From Mytilus edulis (Eukaryota): DNA of 64,000 bases. Numbering within the stretch: the stretch's first letter is position 1; each line of letters begins with the position of its first letter. A program made the translations under genes and the position numbers. Below are positions 48,901-59,523 of the stretch, piece by piece. Where the stretch lies: assembly GCF_963676685.1 (NCBI RefSeq), contig NC_092347.1, forward strand, positions 14,942,001-15,006,000, written 5' to 3'. Below the pieces are notes generated by a model, which worked only from the letters and a program-made list of their open reading frames with translations, did no database searches and was not told where the DNA came from.

Positions 48901-49807
48901 TTTCTTTCTTAAACAATCAGAGTGGAGCATTCATCGAACAAGGTTTTAATGTCCATTTTTGACGATGGAAGTTTTTAACGACCTTGACTGGCTAAATAAC
49001 CCTTGCAAGGTCGGTAATCCATTTTCGACCGAGCGTAGATGCGTATGTATACACCCAACAAAGCCATCTATGTCTCCAACCCCCAATTTTCGTTTGAGTT
49101 TAATAAACACAAAAATTAGTTGGATATTATATAGATATATTGGGGAAAATTGTAAGTATTACATAGACTTTTTTCAATTAAAAATTACTTCAATTTTGAT
49201 AAAGCGATGTTTTGCCTTTATTCCGGTAAAAAGAATAAAGACATATATGATCGTCCATATGAATGATAGATACAATCAATTGTGTATAAATCGTATATCC
49301 ATAACGAAACATTGTTTATTATGATTAAACACAAACAGACCTTATTAACATTCTTTTCTTAATATGTGATGTATTTTGGCTAAGTTTTTTTATTGCTCAT
49401 AAATTCATTTTTTCCAGAACGAATAGGGGATGTTCTTTTTTTTTTTATCATACGTCTTCATGCTTTGGATTTTCTTTAACCTATATATTTAATAAACGTT
49501 TTGTCTAATTCACATGAGATTTATTTTTCTCCTCTTTTTTCATTTTCAGGGTTTTGATTTTATCGGTTTCTTAAATGTCTTAATGATTCAGTAGATTCCC
49601 ATATTGGTAGTCATCAATCTATGTAGTAAAATTAAAAAAAAAAAAAAATGTTTCACAAAACGCATAACTATAAAAAAAAAATGTCATGTCATAAAAAATT
49701 AGAACTTTATTTTGATTTGTAACAATTCTTACCACTAGTATAAAAGTGCCTATAAATTCCGCTAATATTTCACGACCAGCTCTACTGCTTAATTTACACG
49801 ACACCAT
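39736..49807 (-). CDS. Aquaglyceroporin (MIP family, AQP3/7/9/10-like), 6 coding exons, 289 aa: join(49733-49807, 43567-43693, 42632-42769, 41031-41149, 40590-40807, 39736-39928)
   Basis: Manual splicing at GT-AG sites gives one open frame: [162 protein letters not shown]...[66 protein letters not shown]...FEPESEKF*. It contains the AEFx[11 protein letters not shown], TAGIFxT and NxARDFGPR motifs. Internal exons of 127/138/119/218 nt match the exon sizes I recall for vertebrate aquaglyceroporins. Confidence 0.95.
40239..40676 (-). repeat. 111-bp tandem repeat (4 units) made of the 3' part of aquaglyceroporin exon 5 plus its donor site
   Basis: Units start at 40239, 40350, 40461 and 40572 (gtgact...gaaatctcttgcacagtttata...accacagttaa). 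Only the last unit overlaps the real exon. Confidence 0.93.
40590..40807 (-). CDS. Aquaglyceroporin exon 5 (218 nt), second motif NCARD
   Basis: Corresponds to ORF 40577-40807; TGCAG acceptor and GTATGT donor; encodes [15 protein letters not shown]. Confidence 0.94.
41031..41149 (-). CDS. Aquaglyceroporin exon 4 (119 nt), loop C
   Basis: TTCAG acceptor and GTAAGT donor; encodes YDGG...TAGIFSTFP...FFDQ, with an N-glycosylation sequon NTS. Confidence 0.93.
42632..42769 (-). CDS. Aquaglyceroporin exon 3 (138 nt), first NPA motif
   Basis: TTTTAG acceptor and GTAATT donor; encodes [10 protein letters not shown]...[11 protein letters not shown]. Confidence 0.94.
43567..43693 (-). CDS. Aquaglyceroporin exon 2 (127 nt)
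   Basis: TTTCAG acceptor and GTAAGT donor; encodes the end of TM1, TM2 and ...GGVSG. Confidence 0.93.
44797..44948. mobile_element. 152-bp GC-rich MITE with 5-bp TSD, in aquaglyceroporin intron 1
   Basis: GACCT|CAGTGGTGGATCC...GGATCCGCCCCTG|GACCT. Confidence 0.82.
45805..46103 (+). repeat. Dispersed SINE-like/PLE-associated repeat
   Basis: The 3' end (gacacattccccatttcctttctcaattttat) is the reverse complement of about 1944-2014; the cctgtcccaagtcagg core is shared with about 635-650. Confidence 0.6.
47560..47730 (+). mobile_element. Short LINE 3' relic
   Basis: [19 protein letters not shown] resembles the 3' end of the 28765 LINE. Confidence 0.4.
49733..49807 (-). CDS. Aquaglyceroporin exon 1 (proximal, 1a)
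   Basis: ATG at 49807, 25 codons ending in FILV, then a GTAAGA donor (phase 0). Confidence 0.92.
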
Positions 49808-51387
49808 CTTCAAAGATAGAAAGTTTTAAAATATCGCCACCAAAGGAGTTAACCTGTCACTTAATTCTTATCAATACAAACATAAATCTCAGGTAATCAT
49901 ACACAATGAAGTTGATATATATTGTTATCTGCAACTTATACCCTAGGGAACATTTAGACACAAACAATTGTTCTTCCCTGATTACTGCAACTTGTTTATA
50001 ATTGTTTAAAGATACATTAGTTTGTTCTGCATAATTCATATTAAAAGTCCAACCAAATTGGCCACCACGAATTTTATTAATTCTCGTTCCATGAAATAAT
50101 AATATGAAATAGGAGTTGATAATTGGTCTGTCTCTTGCTTAGTCCGTTTTTATATCGAATCTAGAATTGGGTTACCCTGAACTATTGTTGCGGATACAAA
50201 TTATCTATTCGCACTGCCGAATGTTATGTTAGGATTGAGTCCTACAGATTAAGATACATTAAACAACTGCGTTTTTACTTTGTGAATATCCTGGATTTTT
50301 TTTAGTGGGAGGAGGGACCAGGGTTAAGAGTGAAGAAACAAAATTTCTATTTATAAATGTTTACATTTTTAGTTTTTGAATTCAATTTAACATTTTGGTT
50401 TTAATTCGTACTTTTTACCATGTCAACAATATAATTGTACTCTTTTTTTTTGTCTATCATCCGAATCCGCCTTTGTTTAGACATAATTTATCTGTTTTAC
50501 ATAATGCATCAAAGTTGTAAAATACGCAGTTTTACAGTTACTTACATGTTTCTACACCCTTAATAATATTTTGATCACATATATAATACATGTTTTTGAA
50601 AAATTACTTTCATGTTTTGCTAATAACTTGTTTGTTAAACAAGTGCAATGCTTGTTTGAAGTATTTGTATACGAAACATATCAAACAAAAACGGTGCTTG
50701 CCTATAGGCATGCACTACTCAAGGTTTCGTATTTTTCATTTTGACAGAATTTTAGATGCACATTCTCATTACAATTTTCTGAACTTTTTTGTTTTTAATA
50801 TGCTGTATAAACAATTTCTTCATAAACCAGGAAAATATTGTTTACGTGCTCATTTATCAGGAAACCTTAAGTTTTCGATGTACTATATAGTTTACTGCAA
50901 AAAGTTGCCCTTTTCCAGAACACATCTAATTGGTTATATTAAAAGTGTTCTATCATTTATGAGGATTTTGATTGGGTCTTCATTCATGTATTCTTTCTTT
51001 CTTTTGTCCATTTTACCTGATACTTCAGATCCCAGTTATTCCGTATATCGTCTTTCTATTTATTTCTATTCTTTATCGTTTGTCCATTTATTCTCATATT
51101 TTGCCAAATAATCTCTATTCTGTAAACCCAATATTGTGTTTACAGAAAGATATTAATACAGACACTCATTTATGTAAATACGTTTGTATTTGTTTTCAAT
51201 AATTAAGTTCAATAAGTTCAAGAGACTGTATACTCGTTATTAAAAATAATTTTGCTTTTGATATTTCCTGTATTTACGATACATGCAATACATTTTTTAT
51301 TGTTCTCATAAAAAAATATTCCAGAAAGATAATCAGGTTAATTCAAAAAGACTAGATTTACTTCAAATAGTGATGAAACTCCATTTA

Positions 51388-51830
51388 GTATGAAATTCAA
51401 AACAGTGTAGCTGTGGCCATTGATTGACACATTAAAATCATTCATTGACTGGGACAATTTAGGTGAACGTTTGTATGTAACGACCAATGCTCACTATGTA
51501 CTTTTTAAAGAAACTTAAACTATGGGGTCACCAAAGGTTCTCAAAACCTAAATAAAGTAATTCGAAAAATTAATCAGAAATAACACGATATTTTGATTTA
51601 TATCAATTATATAAATCAAAACACAAAGTTTATTCCTGATTAATTTTTCGAATTATTTTATAATTAAAGGCGTTAAGAAACCTTTGGTGACCCCACAGTT
51701 TAAATGTCTATCGTAGGTACGTCATTAACAGTGGTTGTTACAGACAAACGTTCACGTAAATTGTCCCAGTCAATGGATGATTTTGATGGGTCAATCAATG
51801 GCCACAGCTACACTGTTTTGAATTTCATAC
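51388..51830. mobile_element. Near-complete palindromic foldback MITE flanked by TA
   Basis: TA|GTATGAAATTCAAAACAGTGTAGCTGTGGCCATTGATTGAC ... GTCAATCAATGGCCACAGCTACACTGTTTTGAATTTCATAC|TA; arms of about 200 bp. Confidence 0.9.
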
Positions 51831-51849
51831 TAAGTCAAAATTTTTGTTG

Positions 51850-58854: not shown

Positions 58855-59155
58855 GGTTATCAAGGTACCAGGCTTATAATTTGTACGCCAGTCGCGCGTT
58901 TCGTCTAAATAAGACTCATCAATGACCTTCAGATCAAAATAGTTAAAAAGCCAAACAAGTAAAAAGATGAATAGTAGTGAGGACCAAAAATTCCAAAATA
59001 TTGTGCCAAATACGGCGAAGGTAATTTATGCCTTGGCTAAGAAAATCTTTCGTTTTTCGATATGTTCGAATAGTTCATAATTAAAGTAGTAAACAGTAAA
59101 TTTATGAAAATGACCATATAATTGATATTATGCCAACACCAAAGTGCTGACTACT
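58855..59155 (-). mobile_element. Retrozyme family 2 copy, hammerhead relic at 58885-58927
   Basis: Reverse complement reads ggtca-TTGATGA-gtcttatttagac-GAAA-cgcgcg-AC-tggcgt (two core substitutions). Confidence 0.72.
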
Positions 59156-59448
59156 AAAACAAATGTTCATTTTTCATCTTATAGGTGATGTGTACGTTTT
59201 AATACATTTTTGTGTGTGACCCGCAATTGTTTTAGTTTAATCAATTTTTGACTATCTGACTCAAAAAAAGCAACATTTCAGAAAAGAATATTCCGAGGAG
59301 TCAACGATGTAGCAAATTTGAAAAAAAAAATATTTTAAAATAGTGAAGAAAATGTTCTCAATAGAAGTTTTCTTATTATTGTCAAAAACACAGATATATA
59401 TGCAGATACATAAATAGAGTTTTTTTTTTTACTTGAAACGATTCTTAC

Positions 59449-59523
59449 CACTAGTATAAAAGATCCAATGAATTCCGCTATTATTTCACGACTTACTCTA
59501 CTTCTTAATTTCCAGAACACCAT
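59449..59523 (-). CDS. Paralogous aquaglyceroporin exon 1 (distal, 1b): alternative first exon or orphan duplicate
   Basis: ATG at 59523, MVFWKLRSRVSREIIAEFIGSFILV (18/25 identical to exon 1a), same 75-nt length and same GTAAGAAT donor. Confidence 0.8.

Follow-up and report, generated by a model that had tools for sequence, protein, structure and literature searches.

In the salmon louse, aquaglyceroporin variants glp1_v1/v2 and glp3_v1/v2 arise when a proximal or a distal first exon is spliced to a common set of exons (PMC4539701). These variants show sex- or tissue-specific expression, and their trafficking is under isoform-specific control by PKA and PKC (PMC8167128). A related arrangement lies on the reverse strand of a 64,000-nucleotide stretch of the Mytilus edulis genome (contig NC_092347.1, positions 14,942,001 to 15,006,000; hereafter the window, in whose coordinates all positions are given). 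Here a gene identified from its sequence as the Mytilus aquaglyceroporin Aqpg2 carries two homologous first coding exons, 1a and 1b, ahead of a single set of exons 2-6. The salmon louse belongs to a different lineage and its variants have an independent origin. Its Glp1 variants differ by 17 amino acids in length, and the sections of the two reports drawn on here do not state that its first exons are duplicates, whereas the Mytilus exons are equal-length paralogues that encode the greater part of the first half of helix 1.

Substitutions derived from tandem exon duplication have also been catalogued in human genes, where 39 of 236 are N-terminal, proceed via alternative promoters and give homologous N-termini (PMC8373072). 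The UGT1A and protocadherin clusters likewise combine paralogous first exons, each with its own promoter, with shared downstream exons (PMC8373072). Both Aqpg2 isoforms are already annotated in RefSeq, and their architecture falls into a known class, that of N-terminal substitution by tandem exon duplication, with no new mechanism. The UGT1A and protocadherin clusters contain many variable exons that encode whole domains. By this definition of a variable-first-exon cluster (many exons, a whole domain each), the Aqpg2 pair falls outside, having two copies of 25 codons each. The mussel aquaporin survey PMC12771848 treats the same gene and gives one first exon per protein (14 proteins, none labelled M. 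edulis). The passages of that survey drawn on here, which do not extend to its gene-structure figures, make no mention of two first exons in Aqpg2, and no description of two first exons in a mollusc aquaglyceroporin was found in a literature consisting mostly of papers accessible without subscription.

The duplication of the first coding exon in Mytilus Aqpg2 is real. The organization of the locus is probably that of one gene with two homologous first coding exons 9.7 kb apart and one set of exons 2-6, in which 1a is spliced to exon 2, 1b likely is as well, and each likely starts from its own duplicated promoter. Both exons contribute 75 nucleotides (nt) of coding sequence that begin with ATG, remain open, end in phase 0 and are followed directly by the donor GTAAGAAT. 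Between them, 12 of 75 nt and 7 of 25 residues (positions 3, 4, 7, 10, 11, 15 and 21) are changed, and their final 12 nt are identical. The coordinates, the length and the count of 7 residues agree with the initial annotation of the window. In a self-BLAST, 49706-49830 pairs with 59422-59545 (83%, E 2e-29).

The similarity extends beyond the coding sequence, as judged by scoring each flanking block against 500 random windows. None of these windows reached the score of the 63 nt immediately upstream of the two exons or that of the 300 nt of intron past the donor, and two reached that of the block 64-263 nt upstream, where the initial annotation had already remarked a weak similarity. Farther out, the similarity is at background (170/500 upstream, 479/500 downstream). 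The homology reaches ~170 nt upstream and ~190 nt into the intron, and its confinement to these near blocks implies that the duplicated unit still visible, centred on the exon, measures ~450 bp. Identity between the two exons is 84% and their alignment needs no gap, compared with 66% identity and 12 gap openings in 287 columns for the flanks (Fisher p 0.002); unrelated windows give 57 +/- 5% identity. Two copies of exon 1 were found in the whole assembly by DNA search (whole-assembly searches score best candidates only).

The rest of the gene is present once. All introns of exons 2-6 are GT-AG, and a 289-amino-acid protein results from either first exon; two homologous tandem coding exons of equal length and phase precede one set of shared exons. 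Sensitive tblastn and blastn searches found no exon 2-6 sequence between 1a and 1b, as the initial annotation had maintained, and none in the 60 kb upstream. Exon 6 occurs in one copy across all 2368 contigs (DNA search). At the protein level, the assembly holds one near-identical Aqpg2 body, and the next relatives are a gene pair 4 Mb off with 39-55% identity.

Transcript evidence comes from 6 of 24 sequencing runs, examined as contigs (X1, X3, X5 and X7) or as raw reads (X21 and X24); the RNA type was guessed for 14 runs, and four raw RNA runs were chosen by species label. Runs X1 and X3, which belong to two studies, have contigs in which 43693 is connected to 49733 with CT..AC ends, corresponding to a GT-AG intron, and in which exons 2, 3 and 4 are joined as well. 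The first of these joints is the one that the initial annotation had proposed to look for in the case of 1a. Against the 1b stretch, the same contigs differ in 12 letters and leave exon 2 and the sequence upstream of 1a as loose ends, which identifies them as 1a transcripts. They continue in genomic sequence upstream of the ATG for 41 nt (X1) and 19 nt (X3). It follows that the 75 nt represent no more than the coding portion of the exon and that the AG before the 1a ATG does not serve as an acceptor there; the initial annotation, which had taken 75 nt for the entire exon, holds for the coding part but not for the whole, 1a transcripts extending at least 41 nt farther. No contig matching 1b over 59200-60400 was found in the four contig runs, X5 and X7 containing neither exon. 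Contigs drop rare variants, so that this blank says nothing about absence of 1b transcripts. Raw run X21 has no depth on the exons, and X24 yields two reads over the joint of 43693 to 49733 that are not assignable to 1a or 1b at 85% likeness. Splicing of 1a to exon 2 is seen in RNA contigs and that of 1b in database models only; these models and the conservation of 1b make it likely that 1b is spliced to exon 2.

RefSeq isoforms generally require transcript support. The 1a and 1b models agree letter for letter with the M. edulis RefSeq proteins XP_071166904 (isoform X1) and XP_071166905 (isoform X2). For M. trossulus and M. galloprovincialis, RefSeq likewise has an X1/X2 pair whose bodies are identical (XP_063431090/1 and XP_076101874/5, aquaporin-10-like isoforms), on contigs of other lengths and hence in other assemblies, making a mis-assembly very unlikely. 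The initial annotation's proposal of a duplicated first exon giving two isoforms is thus sustained by RefSeq pairs in three species and by the 1a-exon 2 join in RNA contigs. Of the 15 cluster members on the list, the first exon is 1a in 4, 1b in 8 and neither of these in 3. The M. californianus RefSeq protein and four GenBank models of M. galloprovincialis have 1b as their sole first exon, and the 1b of M. edulis departs from that of M. californianus at 1 of 25 amino acids. A search among shorter proteins with residues 1-60 of the 1b isoform gave one match among two candidates, an unspliced exon-2 fragment, and a metagenome scan returned two loci, both distant. Among the relatives in scallop, abalone and limpet, 7 isoform pairs or sets were compared; what distinguishes their members is the C-terminus or a truncation, and no duplicated first exon was seen among these; the C-terminal pairs suggest a shared alternative last exon.

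The encoded protein is a full MIP channel and is assigned to the aquaglyceroporins, putative glycerol and water channels, from its domain, its boxes and its nearest structures. Both isoforms match the MIP domain over its full length (Pfam PF00230, E 8e-50), and the AlphaFold model of isoform 1a, with a mean predicted local distance difference test (pLDDT) score of 84.8, contains six helices and two half helices. The two boxes of an aquaglyceroporin are present as NPA and a variant NCA, in which the Asn is kept, followed by R207 and D208. At E <= 1e-30, 16 solved structures match, all of them AQP3, AQP10, AQP7, GlpF or protist aquaglyceroporins. The best are human AQP3, AQP10 and AQP7 and E. 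coli GlpF (E 6e-73 to 8e-45), which have the Asp after the second box in common with the Mytilus channel. In contrast, the helix-2 filter residue is aromatic in AQP3 and Gly in the Mytilus channel, which also has NCA for the second NPA. The filter residues G53, G192, Y201 and R207 are those of the Aqpg2 orthogroup of PMC12771848, and the sequence is near-identical to Aqpg2 proteins listed there (supplement compared by eye). As for the NCA box, Pro occupies the place of its Cys in 117 of 119 database homologues, but the Cys recurs in most of the mussel Aqpg2 sequences that the PMC12771848 supplement gives.

Within Aqpg2, 1a appears to be the ancestral-like exon. All 8 non-Mytilus Aqpg2 proteins in the PMC12771848 supplement, compared by eye, share G11, L15 and T21 with 1a, and C4 is present in 6 of the 8. 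Because residues of 1a thus occur in other mussel genera, 1a would by parsimony be ancestral-like and 1b derived. Among the Mytilus entries of the same supplement, again by eye, M. californianus, M. coruscus and M. trossulus are 1b-type, and M. galloprovincialis and the two M. chilensis copies are 1a-type. The duplication is likely older than the divergence of the Mytilus species sampled; after it, 1a would have kept the ancestral sequence and 1b would have diverged under partial constraint.

Separate promoters for 1a and 1b are favoured as the means by which the two starts are selected. Homology between the upstream blocks is consistent with a duplicated promoter. A transcript beginning at 1a splices 49733 to 43693, as seen, and one beginning at 1b would splice 59449 to 43693, skipping 1a, whose acceptor-like sites are all weak. 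Several points weigh against this reading. The transcription starts that it assumes for both exons are presumed ones, and the join of 1b to exon 2 rests on annotation whose read support is not visible. The M. edulis RefSeq models lie on a contig of the same length as the one here, were probably built on the same assembly and are hence not independent. An acceptor-like site 124 nt upstream of 1b (pyrimidines 0.85, CAG) scores level with real acceptors, and the M. galloprovincialis model VDI46632 has 6 extra N-terminal residues ahead of 1b. At 0.45, the ratio of nonsynonymous to synonymous change (dN/dS) between 1a and 1b falls below 1 without reaching significance (Fisher p 0.45; 24 codons). 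Moreover, the cross-species conservation of 1b could stem from lineages where 1b is the main exon, and the functional role of either isoform rests on analogy.

The acceptor-like site and the extra residues of VDI46632 together hint at an upstream exon. In that case both exons would be used, but 1b, or both, would be internal and spliced from a non-coding leader or by read-through from the upstream SLC12 gene, the choice being made by splicing instead of by two promoters. Such an arrangement, which we consider unlikely, draws on the occurrence of a weaker acceptor-like site at the matching place 135 nt upstream of the 1a ATG, whose exon would start at 49942, on the AG directly before both ATGs and on the end of the SLC12 gene on the same strand at ~63500, ~4 kb upstream of 1b. 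However, the position of that end leaves less than 4 kb for a shared upstream exon, neither the window nor the 60 kb upstream of it yielded a sequence coding for the 6 residues, and the 1a contigs, over their 41 and 19 nt, leave the AG before the 1a ATG unused; the site at -135 lies beyond their reach. Slightly less probable again is a decaying or nearly silent 1b in M. edulis, with only 1a making meaningful protein and X2 reflecting a few stray reads. The derived residues of 1b (including a Ser at a helix-1 site that is almost always Thr), the dN/dS value and the restriction of assigned first-exon joins to 1a would agree with decay, yet the ATG, frame and donor of 1b are intact and free of gaps next to flanks with many indels, and 1b is the sole first exon in the M. 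californianus protein and four M. galloprovincialis models, with X2 present in three species.

A further explanation, put forward by the initial annotation as its second option, is a collapsed tandem paralogue or mis-assembly, in which there are two full tandem paralogues and the assembly, at the 5-kb satellite between the exons, dropped the body of the distal gene. The exact internal duplications of 440-449 bp within this satellite, and a whole-gene Aqpg2 duplicate in M. chilensis (PMC12771848), lend it some plausibility. It is nevertheless highly improbable, given that the window contains no N, that exon 6 is single in all 2368 contigs and that X1 and X2 have identical bodies in the assemblies of two other species. 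Table S3 of PMC12771848 also gives one Aqpg2 locus for 4 of 5 Mytilus species, and the M. chilensis copies are ~370 kb apart, in opposite orientation and both 1a-type. One gene with two starts and two promoters remains the preferred reading. Partial duplication and an ancient duplication of the entire gene, one body being truly lost afterwards, are indistinguishable as origins of the pair and would lead to the same present structure.

The two 289-amino-acid proteins have their filter and NPA-box residues in common, and their differences are confined to 7 of the first 25 residues. As the filter residues and both boxes are encoded in the shared exons, selectivity is likely the same in both isoforms. 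In the AlphaFold model of isoform 1a, helix 1 comprises residues 9-37; changes 3, 4 and 7 affect the tail, 10 and 11 the first residues of helix 1, and 15 and 21 its interior. The initial annotation had placed the changes mostly in the cytosolic N-terminus, which is correct for 3 of 7, the other 4 lying in predicted helix 1. Of 119 homologues examined, 115 have the motif around position 21; 111 of these carry Thr there and none carries Ser, the residue of 1b. The difference between 1a and 1b may affect trafficking or stability. If salmon louse Glp1 and Glp3 are a guide, the pair would most likely serve expression that is specific to a tissue or stage, and the N-tails would adjust membrane trafficking and not selectivity. 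Predicted phosphorylation sites are often non-functional (PMC8167128), and in view of this warning motif matches are given no weight here. In one M. edulis study, the three aquaporins responding to low salinity were AQP1-like and AQP8-like (PMC8774603), and a salinity link for the Aqpg2 pair would be conjecture. More speculatively, 1b may be a Mytilus-specific neofunctionalised start, with loss of Cys4, gain of Phe-Trp and of a new Ser beside Arg, and alteration of the near-invariant helix-1 Thr. This would yield two channels that differ in trafficking or gating and are promoter-switched under intertidal stress, with two Mytilus branches differing in their dominant exon; we regard it as a doubtful proposition.

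Coordinates of the Aqpg2 exons and associated features in the window
Feature	Position	Strand	Evidence
Exon 1b, coding part (distal, derived by parsimony; RefSeq isoform X2 start)	59449..59523	(-)	exon 2 splicing from database models only
1b upstream block, homologous to that of 1a (likely 5' untranslated region (UTR) and core promoter); candidate acceptor, exon start would be 59647	59524..59685	(-)	
1b donor GTAAGAAT and intron start, homologous to those of 1a	59270..59448	(-)	
47-bp satellite array between 1a and 1b, with exact internal duplications of 440-449 bp	51853..56906	(.)	
1a upstream block; transcribed 5' UTR = 49808-49848	49808..49975	(-)	flank comparison and RNA contigs
Exon 1a, coding part (proximal, ancestral-like by parsimony; RefSeq isoform X1 start)	49733..49807	(-)	join to exon 2 seen in X1 and X3 RNA contigs
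Exon 2 (127 nt; Gly of helix-2 filter site)	43567..43693	(-)	
Exon 3 (138 nt; first NPA box)	42632..42769	(-)	
Exon 4 (119 nt)	41031..41149	(-)	
Exon 5 (218 nt; second box NCA)	40590..40807	(-)	
Four head-to-tail 111-bp units (3' half of exon 5 with donor; three extra copies in intron 5)	40232..40677	(-)	
Exon 6, coding part with stop	39736..39928	(-)	

Two repeats lie among the exons of the gene. Of the 111-bp units of exon 5 (40232-40677), 2 of the 3 extra copies contain a stop. Four M. galloprovincialis models stop shortly past the exon 5 repeat (188-229 amino acids) and lack the last helix, and their ends fit read-through into a repeat unit. The 47-bp satellite at 51853-56906 has a strong strand bias, and its exact duplications of 449 and 440 bp are at offsets of 1766 and 2288.

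Elsewhere in the window, the terminal exon of the SLC12 cation-chloride cotransporter lies at 63500-63633 on the same strand as Aqpg2, with further exons in the neighbouring sequences L001 and L002. The proximity of these two osmoregulatory genes may be due to chance. An open frame of 266 amino acids at 31189-31989 (+) has a weak NHL-repeat match (E 4e-4) and likely encodes a beta-propeller domain, presumably of the kind found in TRIM-like proteins. A second satellite, with a 41-bp unit in ~36 copies, occupies 4723-6317. Broken frames at 2688-3930 and 28719-29351 (+) are reminiscent of the reverse transcriptase of non-long-terminal-repeat (non-LTR) retrotransposons.

For the mussels, the Aqpg2 pair has a bearing on how the family is compared across species. 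In the survey PMC12771848, some Mytilus species are represented by 1a and others by 1b, and its Aqpg2 set accordingly mixes paralogous exons. The locus would represent a young and clean case in which a second N-terminus was gained by duplication of the start, in a family where N-terminal variants alter trafficking, and since the isoforms differ at 7 residues only, the effect of the exchange is directly testable.

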